Positions 3,696-50,432 of a stretch of DNA of 64,000 nt are shown one piece after another (the first letter of the stretch is position 1; the number at the start of each line of letters is the position of its first letter). Location: positions 22,526-86,525 of the forward strand of contig JAWXAU010000159.1 in NCBI GenBank assembly GCA_034439655.1, in the 5' to 3' direction. The notes below the pieces were generated by a model that was not told the DNA's origin, did not search any database, and saw only the letters and a list, made by a program, of their open reading frames with translations. This stretch comes from Bacteroidota bacterium. GTDB lineage: Bacteria; Bacteroidota; Bacteroidia; UKL13-3. The position numbers and the translations under genes were made by a program.

Positions 3696-3725
3696 TTAAT
3701 GTGGCAGCACTATAATTGCTTCCTT

Positions 3726-5228
3726 ATGAATAAACATTTCTGCTATATTATTATCGTATTCTCCTTGCTGCAAGCTTGCCGCACGGATATAAAGGGTACT
3801 AAAAATAACAATAAAGCACCTCGTACATTTTTGGTATGCGATACCATAGCCCGTAGTGGTAATAACAGGCTTTCTTCCACAGTACAACTACAATGGTGGG
3901 GCGATGATGCAGATGGATATATTTCTCACTATAAATATTCGTTTGATGGTATAAATTGGTTAACTACCAAAATACAAGACTCTGTTTTTAATTTACAAAT
4001 ACCTCCAGGTAAAGATACTTTTGATTTTAAATTTATAGTAAAAGCAGTGGACAATATGGGCTTGGAAGACCCTGTAGGTGCATCACTAGGCGTGCCAGTA
4101 AAAAACTCTTCACCCAATATAGATTTTATCATTCCTACCGGTAGTGCTGGCTCTTCTACCCGAAACCCTATTAAAACATTCCCTGTCCTCAAATATTATT
4201 GGCAAACCAATGACCCTGATGGTGCAGCAGATGTAGACCATATAGAACTATATTTAAATGATACGAATAGTATGCCTGTAAATGTGCCTGCTAATTTTAA
4301 TGAGGTGACTTTAGTGGCTAAAAACCCCACTCAAATAACGAGTGATTGTAATATATTACAAGGAAGCAATCAGACTTTGTCAGCAAGTGTACTTAAAGGT
4401 ATGGTGCTAGATGCAAGCAATGTATTATATATTCGTTCAGTTGATAAAGTAGGAGCAAAATCATTATATAAACCATCGCAAAATATATTTGTGAAAAAAG
4501 TACATGGGTCTGTTTTATTGGTCAATGGAATGCTGAGTAGTAGCGGCAAAATAAGCTCACAACAATTTTATGAAACAGCATTAAAAAACATGAATCTATT
4601 AAGCTATGATACTTTATTGAGCAACGATATTCAAAATAATAATTATACCGAACTGGCTCCTGACAATCAAACGCAAGCCCTGATATTCGGACTTTTCCCA
4701 CATATTATATGGTTCACCGATGATGCAAATACCGCTCTCAATTTTGCAAAGAAAACACTTCCCACATTTTTCTCAAATAACGGAACATTACTTATGAGTG
4801 TGGCTTTTAATTCTTCGTTTGATACCACAGCAAATTTTCTAGACTTCACACCTGCAAGTCAACTCGTATATATGCCACAAGGTCAAACATACCGACTTAA
4901 CAATAGTGCGAATATAGACCCAGTAAGTAGTGGCTGGCCCAATTTAGTAAGTAGTTCGCCTCCCTTTGTTTGCCGACCTATATATAAACTAGATAACAAT
5001 CAAAATTACAATTACGAATATTTATATAATGCACACATCATTATATCGGGTAGTGTGAACAAGACATGGCAGCAGGCAGACAGTACGAATGTGATGATAA
5101 AACGTATAAAAACCAGTACTAACAAAACAGATTTTATCATTACATCTGTGCCCCTTGAAAAAGTAAACGGCAATAGCAATATTCAACAATTTATGGATAA
5201 AGCACTCAAAACGGAATTGGGATTTTAA
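3726..5228 (+). CDS. hypothetical lipoprotein (about 500 aa, unknown function)
   Basis: MNKHFCYIIIVFSLLQAC lipoprotein-type signal with lipobox-like LQAC. The ORF could also start at 3699. No recognisable catalytic motif. Confidence 0.45.
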   Translation: MNKHFCYIIIVFSLLQACRTDIKGTKNNNKAPRTFLVCDTIARSGNNRLSSTVQLQWWGDDADGYISHYKYSFDGINWLTTKIQDSVFNLQIPPGKDTFDFKFIVKAVDNMGLEDPVGASLGVPVKNSSPNIDFIIPTGSAGSSTRNPIKTFPVLKYYWQTNDPDGAADVDHIELYLNDTNSMPVNVPANFNEVTLVAKNPTQITSDCNILQGSNQTLSASVLKGMVLDASNVLYIRSVDKVGAKSLYKPSQNIFVKKVHGSVLLVNGMLSSSGKISSQQFYETALKNMNLLSYDTLLSNDIQNNNYTELAPDNQTQALIFGLFPHIIWFTDDANTALNFAKKTLPTFFSNNGTLLMSVAFNSSFDTTANFLDFTPASQLVYMPQGQTYRLNNSANIDPVSSGWPNLVSSSPPFVCRPIYKLDNNQNYNYEYLYNAHIIISGSVNKTWQQADSTNVMIKRIKTSTNKTDFIITSVPLEKVNGNSNIQQFMDKALKTELGF

Positions 5229-5240
5229 ATATATAATAGT

Positions 5241-5516
5241 ATGAACGAAGACTTAGACCCCTTAGAAATGGATGTGCTCAATTGCCTATATTTTGTAGAG
5301 CCCTTCCAAACTATATTAGAAGAAACTGGTTTGAGCCCAGCAATAGCGGGAGATGTATTGAAAACACTTATTGCCAAAAAATGGGTAAGCCCGATGAAGT
5401 TTGATGAGAAGGAACAAGAATATATTCGTAGTTTTATATATGATACCGACCACATGCACGATTATCGATATATGGCCACCAAAGAAGGGTTGATGAAACA
5501 TAATGGACTCGAATAA
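5241..5516 (+). CDS. hypothetical small protein (91 aa)
   Basis: ORF only. Located between convergent genes. Confidence 0.25.
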   Translation: MNEDLDPLEMDVLNCLYFVEPFQTILEETGLSPAIAGDVLKTLIAKKWVSPMKFDEKEQEYIRSFIYDTDHMHDYRYMATKEGLMKHNGLE

Positions 5517-7019
5517 CTACAAGTTTTTTAATCTATTGTAGTCAATTTTTGTATGATGTCGTGGGTCTTTGGGTAATGAATCAAGTTTTCTTGTTTCAAT
5601 ATTACCTAAACCAAGTTTACTTAATTCAGAAGTAAAAAACGCCTTATCAAAATCAGCACTAGGCACAAAAAATATAATTGGAATATTATTGATTTGTATA
5701 ATAGTTCCTTCTTTAATTCCTGATATATTTTTTAAAGTATATTCAAGAATAAATGGGAATACGTAGGTGTTATGGTATACAAATGATTCTTTGCAACGAC
5801 CTAGTAAATAAAGTACGCCGTCATTGCCTAGCCTTCCCGCATCACCTGTACGATGCCACAAACCCGAGTTGGTTTTAATTTTATTATTGAGTTGGTCTTT
5901 TGCTAAACCTAAATAATTTTCTAAGACATGTTTCCCTTTTACAACAATTTCTCCAAACTGTCCAACGGAACATTGTATGTTTTCCCATTCATTGCCACTA
6001 TATTCATGGTAAGTATCTGGCAAAAATTGTATAATACATAATTCTGTTTGTGCATCGGGAATACCGACAGGCAGACCATTTTCTAATGTGTAATATTGAA
6101 GTTTATTTGCATCAATGTGGCTAATAGGTTCCGCTTCGGTACTTCCATATACTATCATATTTTTGGCATCTGGAAAAGTATATACTATATCTTTTGCTAC
6201 ATCAGGGAATACAGGCCCACCACCAGTTACCAAATGCTTTACTGTATAATTTTGGAATTTGTTCTCAACTCCATATTTCCCTAAAGATGCAGTATAATAT
6301 GGAGATGCTACAATACTTTCTATGTAGTACCTTTCTATATCGCTATATATATTCTCTGGTATAAATGTTTTAGGTTTAGATGTTTTAAAACTCGGTATAA
6401 CTGTGGTTTTTCCATGTCCCAAATTAAGCATCGTAACAATAGGCAAGGTGCATAATTCTGTAAAGTTTTCACTCCCAGCTATTAAATGTTCGAGTGCATT
6501 AAACTGCTCAAACAAAAAACCATGTGTGCGATTGGCAGCCTTCGGTATACCTGTACTTCCACTCGTAAGCGTAATTAATGCAGAAACGTTTTCCTCCATC
6601 TCAACAGGTAGATGATTATATATATTAGTTTGCTTAGTAATAAATACTTTAAGAGGGATTGTTCTCAAATCCTTATTGAACCATGCAAACAACGTAGCTT
6701 TCCAACCCCCTGCAAACCCTTTGCAGTCAATCATTCTGCAACATTGGCTAATACGCTCTTTGTTGGCCCATTCATCAATAAATACAGCTACAGAACCATT
6801 ATAGAAAATAGCAAGTAGCATAATATATAAGTCTATGCTCATCGGAATATAGACCAAGACTTTATCGCCTTTTAATATATTCTTTTCTTGCAAATATGCT
6901 ACTTGTTGTAATACTTTTACTTTTAATTGTGCATAGGTAATTTCCATTCCCTTATGAATCAGTGCGACTTTGTCGGGATACTGCTCTGCCGCTTCCAGAA
7001 AGAGATTAACGATATTCAT
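5517..7019 (-). CDS. AMP-dependent synthetase/ligase (acyl/aryl-CoA ligase family, ANL superfamily)
   Basis: AMP-binding motifs TLTSGSTGIPKA (TSGSTGxPK) and YGSTEAE (YGxTE). C-terminal GKIDYNRL-like lysine motif. 500 aa. Confidence 0.8.
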   Translation of the reverse strand: MNIVNLFLEAAEQYPDKVALIHKGMEITYAQLKVKVLQQVAYLQEKNILKGDKVLVYIPMSIDLYIMLLAIFYNGSVAVFIDEWANKERISQCCRMIDCKGFAGGWKATLFAWFNKDLRTIPLKVFITKQTNIYNHLPVEMEENVSALITLTSGSTGIPKAANRTHGFLFEQFNALEHLIAGSENFTELCTLPIVTMLNLGHGKTTVIPSFKTSKPKTFIPENIYSDIERYYIESIVASPYYTASLGKYGVENKFQNYTVKHLVTGGGPVFPDVAKDIVYTFPDAKNMIVYGSTEAEPISHIDANKLQYYTLENGLPVGIPDAQTELCIIQFLPDTYHEYSGNEWENIQCSVGQFGEIVVKGKHVLENYLGLAKDQLNNKIKTNSGLWHRTGDAGRLGNDGVLYLLGRCKESFVYHNTYVFPFILEYTLKNISGIKEGTIIQINNIPIIFFVPSADFDKAFFTSELSKLGLGNIETRKLDSLPKDPRHHTKIDYNRLKNL

Positions 7020-7022
7020 TGT

Positions 7023-8027
7023 TTATAGTGCTTTACCAAATAAGGTATAGTGTCTAAAATCATTACCTGAAAACTTCGCTGATACATTCACGGATTTATT
7101 TTGCACGTGCATAAAAGCATGGTATAATTTTGTAATATGATTTTGGGATGCGTATTGCACAATCATATCACAAAGCAATTGAGTAATTCCAGCATATTTT
7201 CTTGCAGGATTCCTAGCCAATGTTTTTATTATAATACTTTGCTTACTTGCATCAAATAAATCTGGAATTGCAAATATAAATCCTGCTAATTTACCTGTCA
7301 CTGTGTCTTCTGCCAGAATAATCAAATCAGGATTGAGAATTGGCATTAGCAGTAAATACAGGTTTAAGAAATCTTTTGATGAGATAGGCGTATACAGAAA
7401 ATTATGAACAAAAACCTCGCTACACAAATCATATAACAGTAGTAATTCTTTCTCCAAATTGTTCATATCAATTGAACGGATATTTATTTGCTGTTGATCA
7501 AATCTTTCTTTTAAATATAAGTATTTTCCGAACGCCAAATCGGTATCGACTTGAGATAGGTAATGTGAAATTGCTCCAAACCCATTTGCTTCGAACTGCT
7601 GCGAGTAATAATGTTGATGAAGGTTTTCAGTAAAAAATAGTGGGTTTGTTTGACTATCTATAAATCGATAAGCTTTCCAAGTGCTTCCATTCATTGGGCC
7701 AATAATATAAGTATAGTCCTTTTCTTTGGCAATTTCAAATGCTGAATTTAATAATGTTTTTGCAGCTTCATGTTTGTCAATGCATTCATAATTACCTATT
7801 GCAATCGCAGATGTATTATTATATAATAAATCTTTGTTTTCATATAATGCCAAACGTCCGCAAGGCATATCCTCTTCCATTAGTAATAAACAAGTTGCTA
7901 TGCCTGCTAGGGCAAATTGATTTTTAAAACGCTGCGACCTATCACCATACAAATCAAAAGGGAAATTTATAAAATCCTCATACTTTGCATGAAGCTCATT
8001 TACCACAATCGTATGATACTTTTCCAT
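7023..8027 (-). CDS. hypothetical protein, GNAT-like (putative N-acyltransferase) fold
   Basis: C-terminal KTLARNPARKYAGITQLL resembles GNAT motif A (R/Q-x-x-G-x-A/G). 334 aa. Tightly packed between the AMP-ligase and the membrane protein. Confidence 0.3.
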   Translation of the reverse strand: MEKYHTIVVNELHAKYEDFINFPFDLYGDRSQRFKNQFALAGIATCLLLMEEDMPCGRLALYENKDLLYNNTSAIAIGNYECIDKHEAAKTLLNSAFEIAKEKDYTYIIGPMNGSTWKAYRFIDSQTNPLFFTENLHQHYYSQQFEANGFGAISHYLSQVDTDLAFGKYLYLKERFDQQQINIRSIDMNNLEKELLLLYDLCSEVFVHNFLYTPISSKDFLNLYLLLMPILNPDLIILAEDTVTGKLAGFIFAIPDLFDASKQSIIIKTLARNPARKYAGITQLLCDMIVQYASQNHITKLYHAFMHVQNKSVNVSAKFSGNDFRHYTLFGKAL

Positions 8028-8028
8028 C

Positions 8029-8724
8029 TTATACTTGTATATTAAACATCCATAAATAATTTACCGCAATGCAAGCAAGGGGAATAAAGAAATTATCAGA
8101 GCCTTTGCTGGCTAACAGTTCCGTGACGGCGGTGATAACTGACATTAACAAAACAAAAGTATATATATTTCCAAGAATAGGTGCATGGAGAAAATGGGCC
8201 AATAAACTTGTTACTATAGCAGCTACTATAATAAAACCCACAAATCCCGAGAGAGATTTTTTGTCGCCAAAGATGTACATAATTCCTATTGGGAAACCTC
8301 TACCACAGAGAGCCGCAGCAGGGTCGGCCAATGCCATAACCAATACCGGTTGATAGAACCAAAAATAACTCTGGAGGCCTGTATGTCCTCGCATAAAATC
8401 GTAAAATAAAAAACTCATGTATACTGCCACTGGATATAAAATACTCCCATGAGATTTGCGGTCTATAGCATTAATAGAACGAAGCAAATTAAATTTCAAA
8501 CTTACCACTAACAGGATAACAAATGATGAACAAATACCCAATACCCACCAATGTGAGCTGAATAATATAGGGAACAGCATGGTGAGTAAACCTGAACCTA
8601 TATGTACCACTTTCCGTGAATGCTCACCTTGTACTTTCAATTTATGATACAATACTTCTGCCGTTGCAAATAAAACGATATATGCTCCCGATAATATAAT
8701 ATAATGTAGTAAATCAGTATTCAT
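8029..8724 (-). CDS. CTP-transferase-family (CdsA/dolichol-kinase/phytol-kinase-like) integral membrane protein
   Basis: Multi-TM. ALADPAAALCGRGFPIG...GDKKSLSGFVGFI resembles the C-terminal DxxAxxxGxxxG...K..S..G signature of PF01148 but lacks the canonical CdsA SPxKTxEG. 4-bp overlap with the upstream DUF3419 gene. Confidence 0.45.
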   Translation of the reverse strand: MNTDLLHYIILSGAYIVLFATAEVLYHKLKVQGEHSRKVVHIGSGLLTMLFPILFSSHWWVLGICSSFVILLVVSLKFNLLRSINAIDRKSHGSILYPVAVYMSFLFYDFMRGHTGLQSYFWFYQPVLVMALADPAAALCGRGFPIGIMYIFGDKKSLSGFVGFIIVAAIVTSLLAHFLHAPILGNIYTFVLLMSVITAVTELLASKGSDNFFIPLACIAVNYLWMFNIQV

Positions 8725-9803
8725 ATTTTTTGATCAACTATATATTGATTGTAAAAAAAGCATTTATCAATGCTATGTAGTTTGTTGGAGAGTTCCTTTT
8801 GAAAAGCAAACTGCGTAGGATAACTTTCTGACAAACGCCTTGGCACCATCAGGTTCCAATAGGCTACACGGGCATTTGGGTTGGAATAGGTAGAAATAAT
8901 ATCTGCGTTTTCTCTCATTTGCCCTTCGCTCATGTATTCAAATATATCCGACAAGTTAAACCCATCAAATTTTCCGTAGGTGCTTAAAATTTCTTCTGCT
9001 GTTCCCTGTACAAATTTTATATTCTTTATATTAGCTCTTACTTTCTTCAAGTTTTCGGGTAATAGATATTGGGGCAATTGCGGACTAAATTTACCTGTAA
9101 ATATATATGATAAGTACTCATTATTTTGGCAAGAAACCGACATCAAATGTTCGTCAGCCCGTTGGTATATAAATTCACCTACATTGAGCTTTACATGTTT
9201 CATGAATTCAGGGGAACGGCCTGCATTACCCATTACCTTCTTGCTATAGAACAACTTGAAAAGCAGTTTCCACCGCCATGAATTCCATTTGTAATTATAA
9301 AATTTTGCTTGTTCTATTTCTGCTTTTTTGTCTAGTAATTTCTTAGTAGTTCCTTTCGAATGAATAAAGGGTAATACCCATTTGCGAAACAAAGAAAAAT
9401 ATTTTTCGAATTTTCCCGCATGTATAATACCTTTTTCTATATCGCCCAGATGCTGGTCAAAATATTTTTTAGCGTCACTATGCAATTCAAGTCTGAAAGA
9501 TTTATATATCTTTACTCTTTGGCTACTGTCCGTAAATCCCAAGAATGCCAATAACTCATCGTCCTCAAGCTGAGTGATAGCAAGCTTTTTCAACTCGCAT
9601 AAATATAATTGGATGGGGTTCAAATCTCCAGCAACTATAAGTTCCGGATTTAAGGTGAGTAGCGAAAAACTATTATCGCCCGCTGATGCAATAGAGAATA
9701 TCTTCCCCCCTTGTGCGGTTTTTAATCCTTCTAATAATACAGATGAATCTTCCCAACAATTGGCATATCTTATAATATCAAAATTGGTATTTTTGAATTG
9801 CAT
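8721..9803 (-). CDS. DUF3419 / BtaA-like protein (SAM:diacylglycerol 3-amino-3-carboxypropyl transferase-like)
   Basis: N-terminal IRYANCWEDSSVL...IFSIASAGDNSFSLL matches the conserved A-x-CWED start of BtaA/DUF3419 family proteins. 360 aa. Confidence 0.6.
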   Translation of the reverse strand: MQFKNTNFDIIRYANCWEDSSVLLEGLKTAQGGKIFSIASAGDNSFSLLTLNPELIVAGDLNPIQLYLCELKKLAITQLEDDELLAFLGFTDSSQRVKIYKSFRLELHSDAKKYFDQHLGDIEKGIIHAGKFEKYFSLFRKWVLPFIHSKGTTKKLLDKKAEIEQAKFYNYKWNSWRWKLLFKLFYSKKVMGNAGRSPEFMKHVKLNVGEFIYQRADEHLMSVSCQNNEYLSYIFTGKFSPQLPQYLLPENLKKVRANIKNIKFVQGTAEEILSTYGKFDGFNLSDIFEYMSEGQMRENADIISTYSNPNARVAYWNLMVPRRLSESYPTQFAFQKELSNKLHSIDKCFFYNQYIVDQKI

Positions 9804-9807
9804 GGTA

Positions 9808-12396
9808 TTATATAGTTTCTAAAATTTTTATATTTCCTGTCGAACCATCCATCTCCACCCAGTCTCCTGTTTTCAATCTTTGCAATAGTCCTGAAATACC
9901 CACCACACATGGTATCCCCATCTCGCGTGAGACAATAGCTGAGTGGCTGAGCAAACTTCCACGTTCCACCAAAATGCCTGAAGCAGTTGGAAATAATGAT
10001 ACCCAGCCTGGGTCGGTGCTGCTGGTTACCAATATATCTCCATCTAATCCTTCGGCTTCGGAAGGGTGTGTCAATACCCGTACTTTTGCTTTTACAACAC
10101 CTGCACAGCAAGGAATTCCCTTTAAGTCTCCTTCCAAAATTTGCATATTTTTTTCTGCAGCCATTTTGTTGCCTGCATATAAAGGTCCATAACTTTTTAT
10201 CCTTTCTGCTGGATTCATCTTTTCAAAATCGAGATACATTTGTTTGCGAAGTAAAACTAAATCTTTCAAATTACTATGCACGAATGTTCCCTTAATGGCT
10301 CCGAAAATTTCAATTTGTGTTAGATAAAAAATATCAGCAGCGTTTTCCAATAAATGTTCTGCATAGAACTTATTCCCTATCTCCGTAAAAATATTCCTCA
10401 CCATGGCAAAACCTCTGGTCCTTTCGTAGCGAAGGTTTTCACGATTGCTCACTAGATACCGTGCTTTGCCCATGATATAATTGAAGAAGAATTTTTTAAT
10501 GGGTTTATTTTTTAACTTATTATATATAAACAACTCCGCTTCTTTCCTCACTTTGGGTTCTGTATGCACACCTCTAATACTTTCTGCTTTCAAATATCCT
10601 TTTAATATTTGGATATACATTTCTGGTTTTTGACGGTACGTAATTGTTTCCAATTTAAGTTCGCCCACCGTTCTATCTCCCCAACGATCCAAATATTTAT
10701 CTATTTTTTGCTTGAGTTCAAAATACTTTTCATCATGAAGCATTCTCCATATTTTCAGATTGTCCTTTTCCTCAAATAAAGTTTTATATAATATATTTTG
10801 TTTAATAAAGGAGACAAGTTCAAGCCCCATCATAACAGGCTCCACAGAAACAATATCGCCTGATCCTGCCATCAAATCATTATGTAAATTGCTATGTTCA
10901 TCACCAGATATTTTCACCACCAATTTTTGCAAGAGTCCGAAATATATCATACAAAAAAAGTCATTGGTAAGTGGTGCTTTCCATTTTTTCACCAAGGTAT
11001 CTTCAAACTCTAGATAATCATTCATCAATTCATCAGGTCTGCGTTGTGAGAAATCTATCTGTTTATATGTGGTAATAACCTTATTGAAATGTTCTAAGAA
11101 TTCTCTTCGTTGCTTGTCTACCGTAAACAAATTATATAATACAAATCGAATAGCACGCAACACATCCATATAATCACGTAATCCTGCTCGCTTAGGCTCT
11201 TCCGTATTAAATGATTCCTTAACACCCATCATTTTCTCCATGAACTTGGCATTGATGGAAAAGCCAGGCAATAGTGCCAAGGCATTATACCAATTATTCA
11301 AATTATAATATACACGTCCATATATATGTCCCAGCATATTGGCATATACTTCTCCATTGGCTGCAATCACAGAGGGACGAATACCCATGATGGCACTGAA
11401 TTGCCGGTACACACTATCATACATTTTCGCAATAAATGAAAAAGTTAGTGGCAGGGTGAAACCCGGGTATGATTCTATAATATTACTATTGTCCCAAATG
11501 GTGGATTTTGCTCCTGAATCAGGCACGTGCACATGGCTAGTAATAGGACGAGCCTGCAATAAGTATAATATATTGTTTTTATAAGCAAATTCTATATCTT
11601 GGTATTTGTGAAAATACTTATATAATGTATTTAATACTTCTGCTACTTCATAAATTTGTGCATCGCTCAAAGAAGCCTGATTTTGCTTGCCTTCGGGTAC
11701 TGCTACTATTTTTACTCCTGATTTATTCTCAATATCAAAAACCAACATTTCAGTTTTTACTGCAATCTGTTTTTCTATATTGTTTTCTTTGACAGTAAAT
11801 GTATCTGCTAATAATTCTCCCGATACCAAACCTTCACCCAACCCATATAAAGTACTAATCGTTTTCACAGTTCTATTTCCGTCCAATGGGTTGATACCAA
11901 AGCCCACCCCAGCGACATCTGCATCAATCATTTCTTGTATAATTATAGATACAGGGACAATTCTACTTTCACCTGCATTATATACTTTTACCCTAAGTGC
12001 GTATGCCGATTTCCACACTTTTTTAATGGCATTATATATTTCATTGAAGGGAACATATAGTAAAGTTTCATACTGTCCTGCAAAAGATTTATCTCCAGTA
12101 TCTTCTGCAATTCCCGATGATCTTACTGCAAAATATTTAGATTCGTCTACTCCAAAATATGCTTTTAAAGAACTTAGCAGTGCATCATCAAATATATAAT
12201 TGTCAATGATAGTTTCTGGCTTTTCGTTAGGATTGCTTTCAATTTCGTAAATAATAATCGCTGCGGGAACTACTGCATAGTCGGGTACTCTGAGTCCTAT
12301 ACTTTGCAAATGAAATAAATTCCAAGCTTTCATACCAGTGATTTGTTCATCACCGCTTTGTATTTTATAATCTTTAGAAAAAATAATTTGTTTCAT
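9808..12396 (-). CDS. PEP-utilising phosphotransferase, PEP-synthase / rifampin-phosphotransferase-like architecture (PPDK_N ATP-grasp + C-terminal His swivel domain)
   Basis: N-terminal GMKAWNLFHLQSIGLRVPDYAVVP (PEP/pyruvate-binding domain, GxKAxNL). C-terminal GSLLSHSAIVSREMGIPCVVG (PEP-utilisers mobile His domain). 862 aa, as in RPH-family enzymes. Confidence 0.75.
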   Translation of the reverse strand: MKQIIFSKDYKIQSGDEQITGMKAWNLFHLQSIGLRVPDYAVVPAAIIIYEIESNPNEKPETIIDNYIFDDALLSSLKAYFGVDESKYFAVRSSGIAEDTGDKSFAGQYETLLYVPFNEIYNAIKKVWKSAYALRVKVYNAGESRIVPVSIIIQEMIDADVAGVGFGINPLDGNRTVKTISTLYGLGEGLVSGELLADTFTVKENNIEKQIAVKTEMLVFDIENKSGVKIVAVPEGKQNQASLSDAQIYEVAEVLNTLYKYFHKYQDIEFAYKNNILYLLQARPITSHVHVPDSGAKSTIWDNSNIIESYPGFTLPLTFSFIAKMYDSVYRQFSAIMGIRPSVIAANGEVYANMLGHIYGRVYYNLNNWYNALALLPGFSINAKFMEKMMGVKESFNTEEPKRAGLRDYMDVLRAIRFVLYNLFTVDKQRREFLEHFNKVITTYKQIDFSQRRPDELMNDYLEFEDTLVKKWKAPLTNDFFCMIYFGLLQKLVVKISGDEHSNLHNDLMAGSGDIVSVEPVMMGLELVSFIKQNILYKTLFEEKDNLKIWRMLHDEKYFELKQKIDKYLDRWGDRTVGELKLETITYRQKPEMYIQILKGYLKAESIRGVHTEPKVRKEAELFIYNKLKNKPIKKFFFNYIMGKARYLVSNRENLRYERTRGFAMVRNIFTEIGNKFYAEHLLENAADIFYLTQIEIFGAIKGTFVHSNLKDLVLLRKQMYLDFEKMNPAERIKSYGPLYAGNKMAAEKNMQILEGDLKGIPCCAGVVKAKVRVLTHPSEAEGLDGDILVTSSTDPGWVSLFPTASGILVERGSLLSHSAIVSREMGIPCVVGISGLLQRLKTGDWVEMDGSTGNIKILETI

Positions 12397-12402
12397 AATA
12401 GA

Positions 12403-13329
12403 TTATATAAGATTGCCAATCATGGGGCCTGCACCTAAAATTAAATACATACAGATGCTCCAAATTCCTGAAGATAATTCAATTTGCTTGGCATATTTTG
12501 TTTGCATATTGCTCCTGAACATCAATGCGGGTATACAACATACCACAAACAATACAGCCAATATAATATATGGACCCACATTATAATTTGCATAATAACA
12601 AGCACCCATTGCCAGCATCATAGTTCCCAATAGACACAATATCCAATATATGGGAGCAGCTTTATGACCCATTAGATTGGTATAAGAAACAACACCAGGT
12701 TCTTCCTTATCTGGAGTTTTTATTTTGCGACCTATCTCCAATACAATTCCATTCATAAACGAAACCAAAAAGAAAAATATCAAACCCTTGGGAGCAGAAG
12801 CTCCCGCCAGGAACCAATCGTAGCCGCTTGCGTACACATCGACCAAAGGTATAATAAGCATGTGCGATACCACATACCAAAATTGTCTTTTTCGCAACCA
12901 TTCTACTATAAAGAATTCTTTCAACATTAACATCATATATAGCATCGCTACTAAATACAATATAATCATATTGGGGTAGGTAAATATTTGCACGAGTATT
13001 TGCAAACCTGCTACACAAAAACCTATATATTTTAGTTCGTTTAAAGATATAATACCACGGGGAACTGGCAAATAACTTCTATATAATTTATCTTCTTCAG
13101 CATCCTTATGTTCATCGCAAATTCGCAATAATAAAAACAAGGTAATGGTATTAAATATACAAACCAGATAAGGCTCCCATGCTATGAAACCATCGGCTCC
13201 ACGGCAAATTCGAGAATACGATATGGCAGAAAAACTAAATGCTGCGATGAGCAAACCGTGTGTTGCAAACGGAAATCTTTCTTTTTGATATATATAAAAT
13301 CGTTTGATGAATGAATCCATAATATACAA
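12403..13329 (-). CDS. UbiA-family-like integral membrane prenyltransferase (putative)
   Basis: About 8 predicted TM segments. Asp-rich motif RICDEHKDAEEDK (DxxxDxxxD) after TM2 as in UbiA-superfamily enzymes. 308 aa. Confidence 0.4.
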   Translation of the reverse strand: MYIMDSFIKRFYIYQKERFPFATHGLLIAAFSFSAISYSRICRGADGFIAWEPYLVCIFNTITLFLLLRICDEHKDAEEDKLYRSYLPVPRGIISLNELKYIGFCVAGLQILVQIFTYPNMIILYLVAMLYMMLMLKEFFIVEWLRKRQFWYVVSHMLIIPLVDVYASGYDWFLAGASAPKGLIFFFLVSFMNGIVLEIGRKIKTPDKEEPGVVSYTNLMGHKAAPIYWILCLLGTMMLAMGACYYANYNVGPYIILAVLFVVCCIPALMFRSNMQTKYAKQIELSSGIWSICMYLILGAGPMIGNLI

Positions 13330-13373: not shown

Positions 13374-14648
13374 TTATTTTTTTCTTCCGAATATTTTATG
13401 TGCTTTCGAAAAATTACCAGACGCCATTGCTGCGGCAATAGATAGTTCGCCACAGAGCACGGTTGCACCGCATATTTCTGCAAACTTTCGTGCCGAACCA
13501 GGCCCCACACAATCCAATAAATTTAAACATTCGCGTTGGGTGGGTAATCCAGTTCCGCCACCCACCGTACCCACCATCAAACTGGGCAAAGTAACTGCTA
13601 AATATAAATCGCCATTGCCCACAACTTCCATCCTAGTAACACCCACAAAAGCTTCCGATACACATGCTACATCTTGCCCGCAAGCCATAAATATAGCAGT
13701 TAATCCATTGGCAAAATGCCCTTGAATGCCGATGCTTCCGCTCAATACCGATGCTACTGAAGAAGTTTGCCAATATATAGCAATATCTTCGGGCGTGGAA
13801 CCCAATACTTCTTTTACCACCTGCCGCGTTATTTGTGCTTCGGCAGTTACTTTTTTTCCACGCACGGACGAAAATGAAACTGCGGTAGCTTTTTTATCGC
13901 CTGCATAATTACTTTCAATATACCATTGCTTTGGTTTTATGGGCAAGTGTTCTATTATATAATGACATACAGCATCAGTACATATCGTCACCATATTTTG
14001 TCCTGCGGCATCGCCAGTTGTATAATCAAAAATCATCACAGCTTGGTTGCCTTCCATATTCAATCTGAAATCTTCCAGTTTTGCATGATTGCTATGTTTA
14101 CTTACAATTTCGCGAAATACTTCAATTTTATCCAGAACCCAAAACATAAAGGTACCCAATTCGCTCAATGAATTAAATCGAAAAACAGGAGCTCTTTGAA
14201 CAGCTTCGGTAAGGCAAACCGAGGTTATACCTCCGCATAGCCGTGATGCTTTTGCACCTCTGTTATACGATGCCACCAACGCCCCTTCACTAGTAGCCAT
14301 TGGCACATAGAAATCGCCCTGTGCAAGCGTGCCGCTTATATGGAGTGGCCCCATAATTCCAGTTGGTATTTGGGTCATTCCTATATAATTTTCTATATTG
14401 CCCCGCAAAGATTCTGTGTCTTCAAATTTTGATACCCCGGTTAAAAAGGGCAACTCCATGTTCTTTTCCTTTTTTATAAAATCTAAACGATGCTCCCAAG
14501 CTTCCTTACTCCAAGAAATAGGACCCGGAATGGAAGGGCTGATACCTGAACTTTCTCGCAACTTCAAGTCTTCGAGTACTTGCTCGAAAGGCTTGATACG
14601 GGTAAATAGTTCAATAAGTTTGCGTGCTTTTTCGCTGCTTGTCGACAT
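13374..14648 (-). CDS. hydroxymethylglutaryl-CoA reductase (class I, NADPH), mevalonate pathway
   Basis: ENYIGMTQIPTGIMGPLHISG, GDAAGQNMVT and VGTVGGGTGLPTQRECL match the conserved HMGR catalytic motifs (ENVIGxxxIPxGxAGPL, DAMGMN, GTVGGGT). Confidence 0.9.
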   Translation of the reverse strand: MSTSSEKARKLIELFTRIKPFEQVLEDLKLRESSGISPSIPGPISWSKEAWEHRLDFIKKEKNMELPFLTGVSKFEDTESLRGNIENYIGMTQIPTGIMGPLHISGTLAQGDFYVPMATSEGALVASYNRGAKASRLCGGITSVCLTEAVQRAPVFRFNSLSELGTFMFWVLDKIEVFREIVSKHSNHAKLEDFRLNMEGNQAVMIFDYTTGDAAGQNMVTICTDAVCHYIIEHLPIKPKQWYIESNYAGDKKATAVSFSSVRGKKVTAEAQITRQVVKEVLGSTPEDIAIYWQTSSVASVLSGSIGIQGHFANGLTAIFMACGQDVACVSEAFVGVTRMEVVGNGDLYLAVTLPSLMVGTVGGGTGLPTQRECLNLLDCVGPGSARKFAEICGATVLCGELSIAAAMASGNFSKAHKIFGRKK

Positions 14649-14773
14649 AAATTGTTAATTATTAAAGATTGACAAAGATATGTTTACAATTGGTAATACA
14701 AAATCTGATTTATCGTAAAGTACAACCAAGAATTGTATAAACCATTAAGAAGTTAAGGGGCATTAAGCATATT

Positions 14774-14945
14774 TATACCAATTCTTAAACTAAAATAGTT
14801 CTCCGCCTGTGGCGGATTTGGTTTTTAGAATGGTAATGCCGAACTACATCCCGAAAGCCCCGCTTAATCCCGATAATTATCGGGATGCGGGGGGTTTAGC
14901 CCCTTTCTTTTCGACTATTATATATTGAGTTTCGGTATTACTTAA
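14774..14945. repeat. interspersed repeat element, copy A (long form with internal CCCGATAATTATCGGG palindrome)
   Basis: Shares tataccaattcttaaactaaaatagttctccgcctgtggcggattt...tagaatggtaatgccgaactaca...ctttcttttcgactattatatattgagtttcggtatta with copies at 25924, 41858 (reverse complement) and 52124. Confidence 0.8.
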
Positions 14946-21596: not shown

Positions 21597-24089
21597 ATGA
21601 GCTTATCACTATATAAAAAGAAAAGGAATTTTGCAAATACACCAGAGCCCGATGCTGCAAAAGGAGTGAAAAAATCGACACTAAGTTTTGTAGTGCAGCG
21701 GCATCATGCCTCTAATTTGCACTATGATTTCAGACTAGAAATGGAAGGCGTACTGAAAAGTTGGGCTGTACCTAAAGGTCCTTCCATGGTAGCTGGGGAG
21801 AAACGCTTGGCAGTGCTCGTAGAAGACCATCCATTACCTTACGGAAAGTTTTATGGAGAAATACCAAAAGGAAATTACGGGGCGGGCACTGTAGAAATAT
21901 GGGATGCAGGAACCTATCGCACTATTGAAGAAAGTAGTAATGAAGAAAAAACATTGCTGGCACAGTTATATAAAGGGGATGTGAAATTTATAATAAACGG
22001 CAATTATTTACAAGGTGAATTTGCATTGGTACGTATGAATGATGGTGAAAGAAAAAATTGGTTATTGATCAAAAAAAAAGATGGATTTGCACAAAATAAT
22101 TTTAATATAGAATCATTGCCGCCATTAAAATCAACCAATAAAAAAAAAGTAAAACCTGGCAGCAAGAATATAGCAGTGCCTAAAAAAGCACAACCTCTAA
22201 AAGAGGACCCATTCCCAACAGAAGTTATTAAACCAATGTTGGCAAAACTTGGCGAGACCGTAATAGACGATACAGATTGGCTCTATGAAGTAAAGTACGA
22301 TGGTTATAGGGCAATCGCCAAAATAAATAATGGTAAGGTGGAAATGTTTTCACGCAATGGTAATAATTTCACCAACACTTACCAACTATTGGTAAGTGAA
22401 TTGGCAACCATTCAAGAAAATATTATTTTGGATGGTGAAATGGTCATAGAAAATAAAAAAGGGGTAAGCGATTTTCAATTATTGCAAAACTATAGTAAAA
22501 CCAAACAAGGAGTATTAAAGTATTATATATTTGATTTGCTTTATTTGAATGGCCATAGTACCGTTTCGTTAACCTTAAAAGAAAGAAAAGAACTGCTTGA
22601 AATGTTCTTTAAGAATTATAATTTTAAGAACATTTACAATTCCGCTTTTCAAATCGGCGATGGTAAAACTTTGTTCAACAAACTTTCTGTGAAGGGTTAC
22701 GAGGGAATCATTGCAAAAGACCCCGATAGTAGGTACCTACTAGGTAGACGTAGTGAAGCATGGTTAAAAATAAAAGTGACTATGATGCAAGAAGTTGTTA
22801 TATGTGGGTACACATTGCCACAAAATAGTCGTAAATATTTTGGTTCACTTATACTGGGATTATATGATGGCAAAGTACTAAAATATATTGGAAATTGTGG
22901 TACTGGATTTACAGAAGTTTCGCTTAAGGAATTGCATACTTTTTTTGAGAAATTAAAAACCACAGAATGTCCCTTTATTATTCAACCAAAACTTGCAGGT
23001 ACAAAAGGCAAGCCCGTATGGCTAAAACCTAATTTAGTATGTAATGTCAAATTTTCTGAATGGACACAGAATGAGCACATGCGAGTACCTGTTTTTATGG
23101 GTATTCGCACCGATAAAAAAGCGGAGGAAGTTATTAATGAAACTATAAAAACAACAGAAAAAACTAACAGCCAATCCGAAAAAGAAAAAACCATAATTAT
23201 AGCAGGCAAAAAAGTAAAGTGTACTAATATAACAAAAGTATACTGGCCTGAGCAAGGTTATACCAAAGGCGATTTACTTAATTATTATCAAACAATTTAT
23301 AAATACCTGCTGCCGTACTTAAAAAACAGGCCGCAATCATTAAATAGGCACCCTAACGGGATTACAGGCCATAATTTTTACCAAAAAGATATGGAAGTAA
23401 AGCAATTGCCTGATTGGATTAAAACGGTAAAGTTGTATTCAAAATCGAACAACTCATATATTAACTATTTACTGTGCAATGATGCAGCCACCCTTATTTT
23501 AATGGCCAATATGGGCTGCATAGAAATCAACCCATGGCATAGCACCTTTATGAATGTAGATGAACCTGATTATATGATCCTTGATTTAGACCCGGGTAAT
23601 ATTTCATTTGTGGATGTAGTTGATACTGCTTTGGTGATACAAGAAATATGTACTGAAATACAAATTCCTTCTTATTGTAAAACAAGTGGTGCCACGGGTT
23701 TACATATTTATATTCCACTGGGAGCCAAATATAATTACGCCGAAGTAAAAATATTTGCAGAATTATTAGCGGTTATTACTCACAGCAGGCTACCACATAC
23801 TACAAGTATTGAACGTTCAGTGGCAAAACGTCCAGATAAAATATATATAGATTTTTTACAAAACAGGAAAGGGCAAACAATAGCAGCCCCCTACAGTATT
23901 CGTCCCAAAAATTTTGCAACTGTTTCTACCCCGCTTTTATGGAAAGAAGTGAATCATAAATTAACGCCTGAAAAGTTCACGATAAAAAATACAGAAAAGC
24001 GATTGCAAAAAATGGGAGATTTGTGGCAGCCTGTTTTAAAAAAAGGGATCATACTTGCCAAAGCACTGAAATTAATCGAGAAGTTATAA
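21597..24089 (+). CDS. ligD: ATP-dependent DNA ligase LigD (phosphoesterase - ligase - polymerase domain order)
   Basis: N-terminal FVVQRHHASNLHYDFRLEMEGVLKSWAVPKGPS (3'-phosphoesterase). EVKYDGYRA adenylation lysine motif. C-terminal primase-polymerase domain. 830 aa. Confidence 0.9.
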   Translation: MSLSLYKKKRNFANTPEPDAAKGVKKSTLSFVVQRHHASNLHYDFRLEMEGVLKSWAVPKGPSMVAGEKRLAVLVEDHPLPYGKFYGEIPKGNYGAGTVEIWDAGTYRTIEESSNEEKTLLAQLYKGDVKFIINGNYLQGEFALVRMNDGERKNWLLIKKKDGFAQNNFNIESLPPLKSTNKKKVKPGSKNIAVPKKAQPLKEDPFPTEVIKPMLAKLGETVIDDTDWLYEVKYDGYRAIAKINNGKVEMFSRNGNNFTNTYQLLVSELATIQENIILDGEMVIENKKGVSDFQLLQNYSKTKQGVLKYYIFDLLYLNGHSTVSLTLKERKELLEMFFKNYNFKNIYNSAFQIGDGKTLFNKLSVKGYEGIIAKDPDSRYLLGRRSEAWLKIKVTMMQEVVICGYTLPQNSRKYFGSLILGLYDGKVLKYIGNCGTGFTEVSLKELHTFFEKLKTTECPFIIQPKLAGTKGKPVWLKPNLVCNVKFSEWTQNEHMRVPVFMGIRTDKKAEEVINETIKTTEKTNSQSEKEKTIIIAGKKVKCTNITKVYWPEQGYTKGDLLNYYQTIYKYLLPYLKNRPQSLNRHPNGITGHNFYQKDMEVKQLPDWIKTVKLYSKSNNSYINYLLCNDAATLILMANMGCIEINPWHSTFMNVDEPDYMILDLDPGNISFVDVVDTALVIQEICTEIQIPSYCKTSGATGLHIYIPLGAKYNYAEVKIFAELLAVITHSRLPHTTSIERSVAKRPDKIYIDFLQNRKGQTIAAPYSIRPKNFATVSTPLLWKEVNHKLTPEKFTIKNTEKRLQKMGDLWQPVLKKGIILAKALKLIEKL

Positions 24090-48680: not shown

Positions 48681-50432
48681 TTAATTCAAATTCAAAAATT
48701 CTGCAATATCACCTTCAGTTTTCAAATCTTTTTCGCTCACCCGCATCGCAAAGGTAAGTTGATTGATTCCTTCTTTTTTCGGCTTTAATTTTTTTACCTC
48801 CGCGGGTTCTATCATGGCAATTTTCCCATCATTGGTTACCACCCAAAATGTAGTGGACGATTCTGGATTATAAGTTAAATTTGCTTTGTCACCTCCATTA
48901 GATATAGTATATAATGCATTACGTCCATGGTCGACCATATATAATGTAGTGAATGCTATCGTTTTTCCTTTATCGTCGGTAACACTTGCTAGAACTGTAG
49001 CTCCAGTGGGAAAAGAGCTAGGGCAATCGCCATTATACATTCCAAACTGACGGACTTGAAAAGCTCTATAACCTATACTTTGTATATAGGATGATTTGTT
49101 TTGTTTTTCCCAGGCTTCTGCTTGTTTCCTGCGAAATTCTTCCATGGCCTTTTCATACTTTGCAAAATCTTCTTTTTGTTTAGCTTCGTCTTCTATTAAT
49201 TTTTTCTGATTGCGTTCTTGATTAAGGACTTTACCTGTATATCTACTTTCATATTTTGCATATAAAGTATTATAAGTTTCCATAGCAGCATCATAATCTT
49301 TTCCAGTAAATACGGGACTGCAATTGGTCAGTGAATATATGCTAGGGTCACCGCCCCTATTGGCTTTTACCAACGTAAAATCATAATATCCTTCGGTTAT
49401 GCTTTTCATCATTTTCACATCTTCAAAATCATTCTTCTCAAAATTAGCAGGTAACTTATTATATTGTGCCAAAGGAATTTCGAACAATACATCTTTATAT
49501 ACTGCAATCTCTGGAAACTGCCCTGGGTCTACTTCTAGCTTAAAAGTATTTTTCATATCCTTTAGTTTGGCGGGCTTGGCAGGCTTGATTTCTGCAATTG
49601 GTTTATAAACAGGCTTTACAAAGGCTCCACTAGGAACAAGTATAGGTTTACTATCTTCTGCTTTAATAGCCTCTACGAAGGTAATTTCTGTATTTGTATC
49701 TACTGGTACTTTAATAATATCACTTTTGCTTGAAATTATTTCTTTTTTAGGTTTTTTAATTTCATCAATTGTCTCCTCAGTTTTCACCAACTCACTCTTC
49801 CCTAAATAAACCCAAGTTTTAGAAACAGTATCTAATACATATTTATTATATTTATTTTCGCCAAAAGCAGTACTCATTTTCACATTCAAACTTTTTCCTT
49901 CTGCAATCTTTATTGGAGCACCGCCTACAAAGCCTGTTAAATCAAACATCCCGGCAGATTCAAAAGTATATTTAGTTCCTGCACTATCATACGTCATGGG
50001 AATTCCTGATACAAAAAAATCTGTGGGTTTGCGAAACTCTCTATACTTTAAATCAATCATTCCTTTTACTATACTACCATCCATATTTGCAAAAGCATTG
50101 GCGGGAACTTCTATCATACTTCCACTGGGTAATATAATAGTTCCTCCTGTTGAGGCATTTATCTGCAAAGTAGTGTCGGGTAAGTTAACCCCAGTAATAG
50201 GAGGGTTTACAAAAGGTTGGGTTGATATTAAAGGAGCATCGGTTTTTAAATAACTGTAGGCCATAATGCCTACTACAGCTATAATACTTGCAGCCGCACT
50301 CCATAGCATCGGTTTATTATATACTTTTGGTTTGGGAGATGTGTTATAATTATTTAATAAACTCTCAAAATTTTTGCTTGATTCTATTTCTGCATCACCG
50401 ATGGGTGCTCGGTTTTTATTATACTTGTTCAT
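48681..50432 (-). CDS. putative anti-sigma factor (single TM, large extracytoplasmic domain)
   Basis: Cytoplasmic N-terminus, TM MLWSAAASIIAVVGIMAYSYL, about 500-aa periplasmic/outer part. Immediately downstream of the ECF sigma factor. Confidence 0.5.
   Translation of the reverse strand: MNKYNKNRAPIGDAEIESSKNFESLLNNYNTSPKPKVYNKPMLWSAAASIIAVVGIMAYSYLKTDAPLISTQPFVNPPITGVNLPDTTLQINASTGGTIILPSGSMIEVPANAFANMDGSIVKGMIDLKYREFRKPTDFFVSGIPMTYDSAGTKYTFESAGMFDLTGFVGGAPIKIAEGKSLNVKMSTAFGENKYNKYVLDTVSKTWVYLGKSELVKTEETIDEIKKPKKEIISSKSDIIKVPVDTNTEITFVEAIKAEDSKPILVPSGAFVKPVYKPIAEIKPAKPAKLKDMKNTFKLEVDPGQFPEIAVYKDVLFEIPLAQYNKLPANFEKNDFEDVKMMKSITEGYYDFTLVKANRGGDPSIYSLTNCSPVFTGKDYDAAMETYNTLYAKYESRYTGKVLNQERNQKKLIEDEAKQKEDFAKYEKAMEEFRRKQAEAWEKQNKSSYIQSIGYRAFQVRQFGMYNGDCPSSFPTGATVLASVTDDKGKTIAFTTLYMVDHGRNALYTISNGGDKANLTYNPESSTTFWVVTNDGKIAMIEPAEVKKLKPKKEGINQLTFAMRVSEKDLKTEGDIAEFLNLN

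Follow-up and report, generated by a model that had tools for sequence, protein, structure and literature searches.

Rifampin phosphotransferase (RPH)-type dikinases have few known substrates, the characterised relatives phosphorylating hydroxyl or carbonyl oxygens of small molecules, namely of rifamycins such as rifampin, of the bipyrrole aldehyde MBC, a prodiginine precursor, and of phenolics (PMC4844700, PMC13534948, PMC12167813). The validated RPHs form clade A and are more than 42% identical to RPH-Lm, in which K22, R666 and E667 were found by mutagenesis to be required for the two half-reactions (Stogios et al. 2016, PMC4844700). Distant RPH clades keep the Arg-Glu-Lys block and lose the rifampin residues, and other small-molecule substrates had already been predicted for them in the same study (PMC4844700). 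PigC, HapC and RedH join MBC to a pyrrole by transient phosphorylation followed by condensation (PMC13534948).

Here, a relative of these enzymes is described from a stretch of 64,000 nucleotides of a Bacteroidota bacterium (GTDB lineage UKL13-3; GenBank assembly GCA_034439655.1, contig JAWXAU010000159.1, positions 22,526 to 86,525), referred to below as the window. The gene, at 9808..12396 on the minus strand, encodes an RPH/PigC-type dikinase of 862 aa and belongs to a conserved cassette of biosynthetic genes. Its product is very probably a pathway-dedicated small-molecule dikinase and neither an RPH nor a phosphoenolpyruvate (PEP) synthase; to the fuller reading, a pathway-dedicated dikinase of the RPH/PigC superfamily that acts on an intermediate of its own cassette, we give a probability of roughly 60%. 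Superfamily and swivel mechanism have been described before; what is new is the clade, its conserved predicted pocket, its membership of a cassette found across phyla and its atypical partners, an HMG-CoA reductase (HMGR)-like and a UbiA-type protein.

Architecture and family placement of the dikinase

The 862-codon open reading frame (ORF) that a preliminary description, made from the sequence alone, had placed at 9808 to 12396 was found there, stop codon included, and the strand, which had been left out, was determined to be the minus strand, on which the ORF starts with ATG; the plus-strand translation of the interval is riddled with stops. Both peptides quoted in that description were located, GMKAWNLFHL at residues 21-30 and LLSHSAIVSREMGIPCVVG at residues 815-833. 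Homologues numbered in the thousands in a protein-database search, with 4768 representative relatives at E < 1e-30, so the ORF is far beyond chance, and an identical protein (P0001) was recovered from a Bacteroidota metagenome-assembled genome (MAG).

A Pfam scan revealed PPDK_N at residues 77-288 (E 5e-51) and the PEP-utilizers mobile domain at residues 785-854 (E 9e-25), separated by about 497 residues, and no match to the PEP-utilizers_C (PF02896) TIM barrel. The swivel domain is located at the extreme C-terminus (785-854 of 862) and not centrally. Three domains were delimited on the minus strand: the ATP-grasp nucleotide-binding domain, from the PPDK_N match (residues 1-294; 11515..12396), the central substrate-binding domain, for which the precomputed Pfam annotation Rph_4th is present in all homologues (residues 295-750; 10147..11514), and the phosphohistidine swivel domain, from the PEP-utilizers match (residues 751-862; 9808..10146). 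Foldseek comparison of an AlphaFold2 model built on 61 homologues (pLDDT 87.3, pTM 0.79) returned only the six RPH-Lm entries as full-length matches, the best being 5hv1 (E 4e-42, 925 aligned columns, 22% identity); structures of PEP synthase and pyruvate phosphate dikinase (PPDK) matched the ATP-grasp or swivel parts only, over approximately 350-450 columns of 862. From the domain layout and the full-length match to RPH-Lm we conclude that the RPH-type three-domain architecture is real and that a genuine PEP synthase is excluded. The layout with some 500 aa between the ends, proposed in the preliminary description, is thereby confirmed by hidden Markov models and by a structure model whose sole full-length PDB match is RPH-Lm.

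None of the curated NCBIfam models, including those for RPH, PigC, RedH and PEP synthase, reached its cut-off on the dikinase. The top model was NF004881, with 710 bits in a single stretch from residue 18 to 861 (cut-off 883), followed by further PRK06241 subfamily models. The PigC model NF052631 (290 bits, cut-off 1300) and the RedH model NF052632 (269 bits, cut-off 1350) aligned over the full length in single stretches (16-858 and 57-860), whereas the RPH model NF041857 (268 bits, cut-off 999) aligned as two end pieces only; the second RPH model, NF000283, gave 178 bits against a cut-off of 1700. The best PDB sequence matches were likewise RPH-Lm entries in two end pieces, comprising the ATP-grasp domain and residues 555-860. 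A profile of the 61 sequences carried the second piece back only to about residue 500, and residues 295-500 searched on their own against the PDB at E ≤ 10 retrieved nothing above chance.

All of the NCBIfam models that come nearest bear the name 'phosphoenolpyruvate synthase', and some relatives are labelled 'pyruvate, water dikinase' in JGI annotation, as would befit a genuine PEP synthase or PPDK of central metabolism. Such a role is refuted by the domain content and was rejected, its probability being negligible: the PF02896 barrel is absent, the swivel domain is C-terminal and the corresponding models remained under their cut-offs (TIGR01418, 206 vs 740; NF005057, 227 vs 598; TIGR01828, 50 vs 843 bits). 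Moreover, RPH-type enzymes do not use pyruvate (PMC4844700). On this point the preliminary description, which had spoken against a genuine PEP synthase, was right, and 'phosphoenolpyruvate synthase' and 'pyruvate, water dikinase' are wrong names for the dikinase clade.

Catalytic residues, predicted pocket and the question of rifamycin resistance

Sequence alignment assigned K22, R117, T136, R666-E667, K670 and H825 of RPH-Lm to K23, R92, T111, R652-E653, R656 and H818 of the dikinase. K23 (12328-12330), R92 (12121-12123) and T111 (12064-12066) are situated in the ATP-grasp domain; R652-E653-N-L-R656 (10429..10443) is the counterpart of the catalytic Arg666-Glu667...Lys670 block, and the catalytic His818 is encoded by the codon at 9943-9945, which was checked; all these codons are on the minus strand. 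Across 61 relatives with about 50% identity, the mapped residues other than T111 were found to be invariant (R652, E653, R656, H818) or nearly so (K23, R92). The dikinase has, in sum, the residues that characterise the RPH/PigC superfamily, i.e., the catalytic His, the Arg-Glu(-Lys/Arg) block and the Lys and Arg ligands of ATP, in addition to the superfamily order of an N-terminal PPDK_N domain, a large helical substrate domain and an extreme C-terminal His swivel. Two further arginines on the same helix as R652 and R656, R659 (invariant) and R661 (nearly invariant, ≥90%), occupy positions where RPH has Met and Asn.

Within the clade, mean column conservation was 0.71 for residues 295-500 vs 0.57 for the ATP-grasp domain, with 58 of the 206 columns in the former segment being invariant. 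In the window dikinase, the clade motifs read WDNSNIxESYPG..PLTFSF (301-321), GRVYYNL..WY..ALLPG (360-378), MMGVKE (389-394) and RENLRYERTR (652-661). Of these, WDNSNIxESY..PLTFSF, GRVYYN..WY..LLPG, MMGV and RENLR(F/Y)xRT are kept in Brevibacillus, Roseinatronobacter, Sericytochromatia and other lineages, and the motifs W(K/D)xPxxND and DRCxxELKLE persist likewise in the cross-phylum cassette homologues, which share 34-42% overall identity (34-38% for those of Brevibacillus, Roseinatronobacter and Sericytochromatia). A segment that is so conserved and unlike RPH presents, judging by the alignments, the pattern expected for one conserved substrate other than rifampin, and this clade-specific, highly conserved predicted pocket would offer a clean target for structure-function work.

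Three cysteines are also invariant in the Bacteroidota clade. These are Cys763-Cys764 at the start of the swivel domain (10105-10110), where RPH-Lm has Val-Ser, and Cys830; in other phyla the second Cys is variable (Ala, Ser or Gly). A redox or metal-binding function of these cysteines is conceivable.

The architecture and the catalytic His, Arg and Glu shared with RPH-Lm, together with the name 'rifampicin phosphotransferase' given to some family members by JGI pipelines, raise the question of a rifamycin-inactivating phosphotransferase that stands in the operon without functional relevance; the preliminary description had listed a resistance enzyme as its alternative. The dikinase is only about 22% identical to RPH-Lm, as compared with more than 42% among the clade A enzymes, and scores 268 vs 999 and 178 vs 1700 bits with the two RPH models. 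The segment corresponding to the rifampin cradle (P356, A357, M359, V368 and L387 of RPH) could not be aligned even at E ≤ 10, the rifampin block, including Gln336/337, being judged at the level of the segment. In the alignment to RPH-Lm, which the preliminary description had proposed, the catalytic His is retained. A distant-clade RPH homologue gave no rifampin resistance when tested by Stogios et al. (PMC4844700). Furthermore, the six biosynthetic genes stay syntenic with the dikinase gene across phyla, and a scan of most, though not all, of the neighbouring ORFs brought up neither a mobile element nor a resistance gene. A rifamycin resistance function is, therefore, very improbable, and this candidate was rejected for sequence distance, a pocket segment that cannot be aligned and cross-phylum synteny.

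Among cassette-linked members of the clade (e.g., P0039, P0046, P0068, P0093 and P0106), several nevertheless carry the JGI label 'rifampicin phosphotransferase', and others that of 'pyruvate, water dikinase'. We regard both labels as probable systematic misannotations, to which resistome surveys are exposed; with Bacteroidota being abundant in environmental metagenomes, the rifampicin label would inflate resistome counts there.

The cassette and its neighbour proteins

The dikinase gene is one of seven head-to-tail genes on the minus strand that run from 14648 to 5517. The first encodes a class I HMGR-like protein (424 aa; 13374..14648; Pfam HMG-CoA_red, 386 bits) and the second a divergent UbiA-superfamily membrane transferase (308 aa; 12403..13329; Pfam UbiA, 30 bits, under the gathering score). 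After the dikinase follow a DUF3419 protein (360 aa; 8721..9803; Pfam DUF3419, 213 bits over the full length), a CTP_transf_1-like polytopic membrane protein (231 aa; 8029..8724; Pfam CTP_transf_1, 25.7 bits, cut-off 24), a GNAT-fold acyltransferase-like protein (334 aa; 7023..8027; Acetyltransf_1 matches in orthologues) and, as the last gene, an adenylate-forming AMP-binding enzyme (500 aa; 5517..7019; Pfam AMP-binding, 120 bits). The intergenic gaps are 44, 6, 4, -4, 1 and 3 bp; the 6 bp separate the UbiA-like gene from the dikinase gene downstream, and the start of the CTP_transf_1-like gene overlaps the DUF3419 stop by 4 bp. A TATCTTTG box (14673..14680, minus strand) precedes the HMGR-like ATG by 24 nt; it agrees, by pattern alone, with the Bacteroidetes -7 promoter consensus TAnnTTTG. 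The hairpin terminator of the unrelated upstream kdsD gene was found at 14802-14816. Given the short gaps, the upstream terminator and the promoter-like box, cotranscription of the seven genes is likely. A sigma-70 promoter scan of the window remained at background (57 found vs 50 expected), as one expects in Bacteroidota.

A pattern search through GTDB, in which each species was represented by one genome, yielded at least 576 confirmed stretches, and hundreds of Bacteroidota species-representative genomes carry the cassette. The best 80 of the at least 576 stretches came from Bacteroidota-labelled genomes or from MAG contigs with a Bacteroidota-like cassette, including Sphingobacterium, Parapedobacter, Dyadobacter, Botryobacter, Fluviicola, Saprospiraceae and Chitinophagales; for several MAG loci the taxonomic labels are unreliable. 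In 84 related loci, tblastn detected the UbiA-like gene in 81, DUF3419 in 76, the HMGR-like gene in 69, the membrane-protein gene in 68, the GNAT gene in 67 and the AMP-binding gene in 64, the absences being mostly at contig ends. Gene order and strand were constant across the 84 loci, and no conservation among related loci was seen for genes beyond the block from HMGR to AMP-binding. The UbiA-like gene stands directly upstream of the dikinase gene in 81 of the 84 loci and the DUF3419 gene follows it in 76, with a median distance of -2 bp between UbiA stop and dikinase start (≤60 bp in 67 of 79 loci). The window dikinase conforms to this pattern: it carries the clade motifs, lies directly downstream of the divergent UbiA-type gene and is followed by DUF3419.

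Additional genes occur in part of the loci. An SRPBCC protein is encoded between the GNAT and AMP-binding genes in 16 loci, and a pair consisting of a CdsA-like protein and a CDP-alcohol phosphatidyltransferase is present in about 20, i.e., about a quarter. The genes inserted in loci L019 and L037 are unrelated (prolyl oligopeptidase, DUF4337, HipA), with the exception of one BtaB-sized methyltransferase. Two kinds of fusion were found: a 1371-aa protein (P0181, GCA_016648615.1) combines an RPH-type dikinase with a C-terminal AMP-binding domain, and DUF3419 is fused to GNAT in proteins of 661-672 aa (L073:8697-10682, L078:12518-14536). The two DUF3419::GNAT fusion loci are without the CTP_transf_1-like gene.

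Outside Bacteroidota, the cassette including the HMGR-like gene was found in Brevibacillus laterosporus (L089, NZ_CP011076; dikinase 38% identical) and on a plasmid of Roseinatronobacter sp. S2 (L090/L091, NZ_CP121116; dikinase 36% identical). L086 is a distant or non-Bacteroidota version that also carries an HMGR-like gene, and L085 is a further cassette locus listed outside Bacteroidota. Over these loci, the identity of the dikinases is 34-40%. In a Sericytochromatia MAG (L087) the cassette is reduced, the HMGR-like and membrane-protein genes being absent. With NF004881, the cross-phylum cassette homologues scored 636-810 bits, all under the cut-off of 883. A plasmid search for mobile copies revealed distant relatives only (≤38% identity), the two best of which are full cassettes and not stand-alone resistance genes. 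That the whole cassette occurs outside Bacteroidota implies that it moved horizontally as a unit, reaching Bacillota, Alphaproteobacteria and Sericytochromatia.

Some genes near these cassettes are recorded as side observations. Cytochrome P450 genes adjoin the cassette in two loci (L086:20047-21393, L089:17738-18964), a PAP2 phosphatase gene stands beside it in one (L086:21390-22040), and two FecCD-type permeases and an ABC exporter are encoded just upstream of the Brevibacillus cassette.

The constant synteny and the fusions make operon membership a defining property of the dikinase clade. The preliminary description had allowed for a coincidental position in the operon; with the cassette surrounding the orthologue in nearly all of the 84 loci and in other phyla too, this idea was abandoned.

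Among the neighbour proteins, the UbiA-like one has 1273 relatives in the database at E ≤ 1e-5, which make up a subfamily that is narrow and divergent; its first Asp-rich motif, D72-E-x-K-D76-x-x-x-D80, is invariant. Its AlphaFold2 model (pLDDT 90) is nearest in fold to archaeal digeranylgeranylglyceryl phosphate (DGGGP) synthase (6m31/7bpu; E 6e-5, TM 0.64-0.69), with ApUbiA only slightly behind. A PDB sequence search gave chance-level matches, and a profile search found DGGGP synthase alone, at E 0.16. PDB sequence searches with the GNAT-like and DUF3419 proteins returned no match, nor did a profile of the membrane protein. The betaine-lipid enzyme BtaA is a member of the Pfam family DUF3419. 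In one locus only, a 218-aa class I S-adenosylmethionine-dependent methyltransferase is encoded right after DUF3419 (L019:13771-14427), an arrangement that recalls the btaA-btaB pair of betaine-lipid synthesis. The PF01148 (CTP_transf_1) assignment of the membrane protein is weak, with 9 of 35 family members matching. For the GNAT-like protein, the window copy gave no Pfam match at default thresholds, while 21 of 33 orthologues matched Acetyltransf_1 (best E 2e-9), as did the Brevibacillus orthologue (E 4e-11). The nearest NCBIfam model for the AMP-binding enzyme was NF006754, of the fatty-acid CoA ligase family (276 bits, cut-off 478).

The HMGR-like protein scored 323 bits with TIGR00533, under the cut-off of 442, and keeps the catalytic residues E559, D690, K691, K692, H752, N755, D767 and H866 (human numbering). 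In a residue survey of loci L001-L090 and L092-L094, the position of human S684 was Glu in each of the 70 cassette copies, and that of human K735 was Ser, Thr, Ala, Asn or Met and never Lys. Ser and Lys are found at these positions in human HMGR, in the archaeal HMGR 6hr7 and in the Streptomyces HMGR within a complete mevalonate operon; the two residues are Asp/Met in a Vibrio HMGR that stands alone (L092) and Ala/Tyr in a copy on an Alteromonas plasmid (L093). The HMG carboxylate is bound by K735 through a salt bridge, S684 being a contact in the cis-loop (PMC9500038). With both contacts altered, the cassette enzyme may reduce a thioester other than HMG-CoA. No other mevalonate-pathway gene was found near the Brevibacillus (L089) or Roseinatronobacter (L090) cassettes. 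The preliminary description had spoken of a lipid/isoprenoid operon: the neighbours are of membrane-lipid type, and the 'isoprenoid' part depends on a divergent UbiA-type protein and on an HMGR homologue that lacks the two HMG-carboxylate contacts.

The remainder of the window is ordinary Bacteroidota chromosome with type IX secretion genes, LigD and a GyrB/ParE-type topoisomerase subunit, and tRNA and Rfam scans of the window gave no match. LigD (21597-24089, plus strand) comprises phosphoesterase, ATP-dependent ligase and primase-polymerase parts and is a sign of non-homologous end joining in this genome. With 3854 aa, a giant ORF (52367-63931, minus strand) reaches almost to the window end; in related loci (L002), SprB/CHU_C-type giant surface proteins are encoded near the cassette. 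ORFs without a Pfam match are located at 3699-5228 (509 aa, plus strand), 48681-50432 (583 aa, minus strand) and 5241-5516 (91 aa, plus strand), the last converging on the cassette end with no spacer.

Proposed function and comparison with known systems

The enzyme set of the cassette points to an as yet undescribed membrane lipid or lipid-like metabolite as the probable product. For the dikinase, the gene neighbourhood makes an amphiphilic, probably anionic lipid precursor the most likely acceptor, although any particular substrate class, the prenol or lipid head group of the preliminary description included, is doubtful. A lipid-pathway substrate, if true, would widen the chemistry of the RPH-type family.

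By analogy to the characterised relatives, we infer a stoichiometry in which ATP would give AMP, Pi and a phospho-intermediate. The ATP-grasp domain would bind ATP, the β-phosphate of which would be attacked by His818 of the swivel domain, so that AMP and Pi leave and the phospho-His818 enzyme remains. The swivel domain would then turn to the central domain and dock there, with R652, E653 and R656 positioning the phosphoryl group for passage to an oxygen of the cassette-made intermediate. In the pathway as a whole, the AMP-binding enzyme may turn an acid into a thioester, which the HMGR-like enzyme would convert to a primary alcohol in a four-electron reduction; phosphorylation of this alcohol by the dikinase would yield a phosphate ester, which both the CTP_transf_1-like enzyme and the DGGGP-synthase-like UbiA protein, whose gene is translationally coupled to that of the dikinase, could use as acceptor or donor. 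DUF3419, as a BtaA-family protein, the GNAT-like protein and the adenylating enzyme might build an N-acylated amino-acid-type head group.

Several points weigh against this reading. The substrate assignment derives from gene neighbourhood only, the order of the steps is guesswork, and a full-text literature search found no publication on this cassette or its product. UbiA-type enzymes normally need diphosphate donors, which a monophosphorylating dikinase would not supply. With the Sericytochromatia cassette lacking the HMGR-like and CTP_transf_1-like genes, the idea of an alcohol delivered by the reductase cannot hold everywhere.

The dikinase might instead be a PigC-like ATP-dependent ligase, which transiently phosphorylates a carbonyl or hydroxyl oxygen and then condenses it with a second substrate at the same site with loss of phosphate; in this way, the lipid portion of the pathway product could be linked to its head group. 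The dikinase is covered in one stretch by the PigC and RedH models and in two end pieces by the RPH model, the HapC mechanism employs the same His and Arg pair (PMC13534948), and the cassette has several building-block enzymes and no obvious joining enzyme. We consider a ligase unlikely, however: the PigC and RedH scores are far under the cut-offs, prodiginine-pathway neighbours are missing, and the CTP_transf_1-like enzyme and the pair of CdsA-like protein and CDP-alcohol phosphatidyltransferase are easier to reconcile with a stable, further processed phosphate ester than with a transient phosphate.

The coupling of the dikinase to the UbiA-type gene, and the presence of a PF01148-family membrane protein in 68 of the 84 loci, speak for another possibility, namely that the dikinase is the second kinase of prenol activation. 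Here, the CTP_transf_1-like protein would be a CTP-dependent polyprenol/phytol-type kinase, and the dikinase would make the prenyl diphosphate for UbiA. The membrane protein has a C-terminal E...G-x-D-N-x-x-x-P and no CdsA signature, and in both respects may resemble dolichol and phytol kinases. R659 and R661 beside R652/R656 would suggest an anionic acceptor, and the Sericytochromatia locus without the membrane protein has a DAGK_cat lipid kinase gene beside the cassette. On the other side, we know of no RPH-type dikinase that phosphorylates a phosphate, a salvage route would need a reason given that de novo isoprenoid synthesis already provides diphosphates, and the PF01148 match is weak at 25.7 bits in the window copy. 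This role appears quite unlikely; if it were true, prenyl-phosphate kinase activity would be novel chemistry for the family.

A dikinase that phosphorylates a cassette intermediate remains our preferred reading. A more daring extension, which we regard as improbable, is that the cassette could be a widespread and hitherto undescribed route to a new membrane-lipid class, possibly that of an N-acylated amino-alcohol or homoserine-type phospholipid with an ether linkage. A neofunctionalised HMGR-like enzyme would reduce an acyl thioester other than HMG-CoA to the alcohol, and the dikinase would activate this alcohol, or its monophosphate to give a diphosphate, for transfer by the DGGGP-synthase-like UbiA enzyme. 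The enzyme would then be the first lipid-biosynthetic dikinase of RPH type and possibly the first to form a phosphoanhydride.

In comparison with RPH-Lm (PDB 5FBS/5FBT/5FBU and 5HV1-3), the order of ATP-grasp domain, large helical substrate domain and C-terminal His swivel is the same, as are the catalytic Lys, Arg, Arg-Glu and His, and the dikinase chemistry is presumably shared. The differences are the low identity, with residues 295-500 being without detectable sequence similarity, the replacement of K670 by Arg, the two extra conserved Arg and Cys763-Cys764 in place of Val-Ser. Furthermore, the gene of the window dikinase is located on a chromosome within a conserved biosynthetic cassette and is not a stand-alone resistance gene.

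With PigC, HapC and RedH, which are enzymes of a biosynthetic pathway and not of resistance (PMC13534948), the dikinase has in common the three-domain layout, the His and Arg residues of phosphotransfer and a whole-length model alignment that includes the central domain; it differs in its low scores (290 and 269 vs 1300 and 1350 bits) and in having no pig or red neighbours. HpeHI, CreHI and PpsAB belong to the same small-molecule dikinase superfamily, the ATP-grasp protein HpeI (9goj) matching the N-terminal domain of the dikinase, and they phosphorylate small hydrophobic molecules at the start of a pathway (PMC12167813). These systems consist of two polypeptides and are catabolic, with phenols as substrates, whereas the window dikinase consists of one chain and its cassette, of membrane-lipid type, is apparently anabolic.

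PpsA and PPDK share homologous ATP-grasp and phosphohistidine swivel domains and the two-step swivel mechanism; their swivel domain is central and followed by the PF02896 TIM barrel, whereas the dikinase has an RPH-type helical domain before its swivel. The closest curated relative by score is NF004881 (PRK06241.2-2), the best model for the window dikinase and for its cross-phylum homologues alike, although all scores are below 883 and the name of the model, 'phosphoenolpyruvate synthase', is not supported by the domain architecture of the dikinase.

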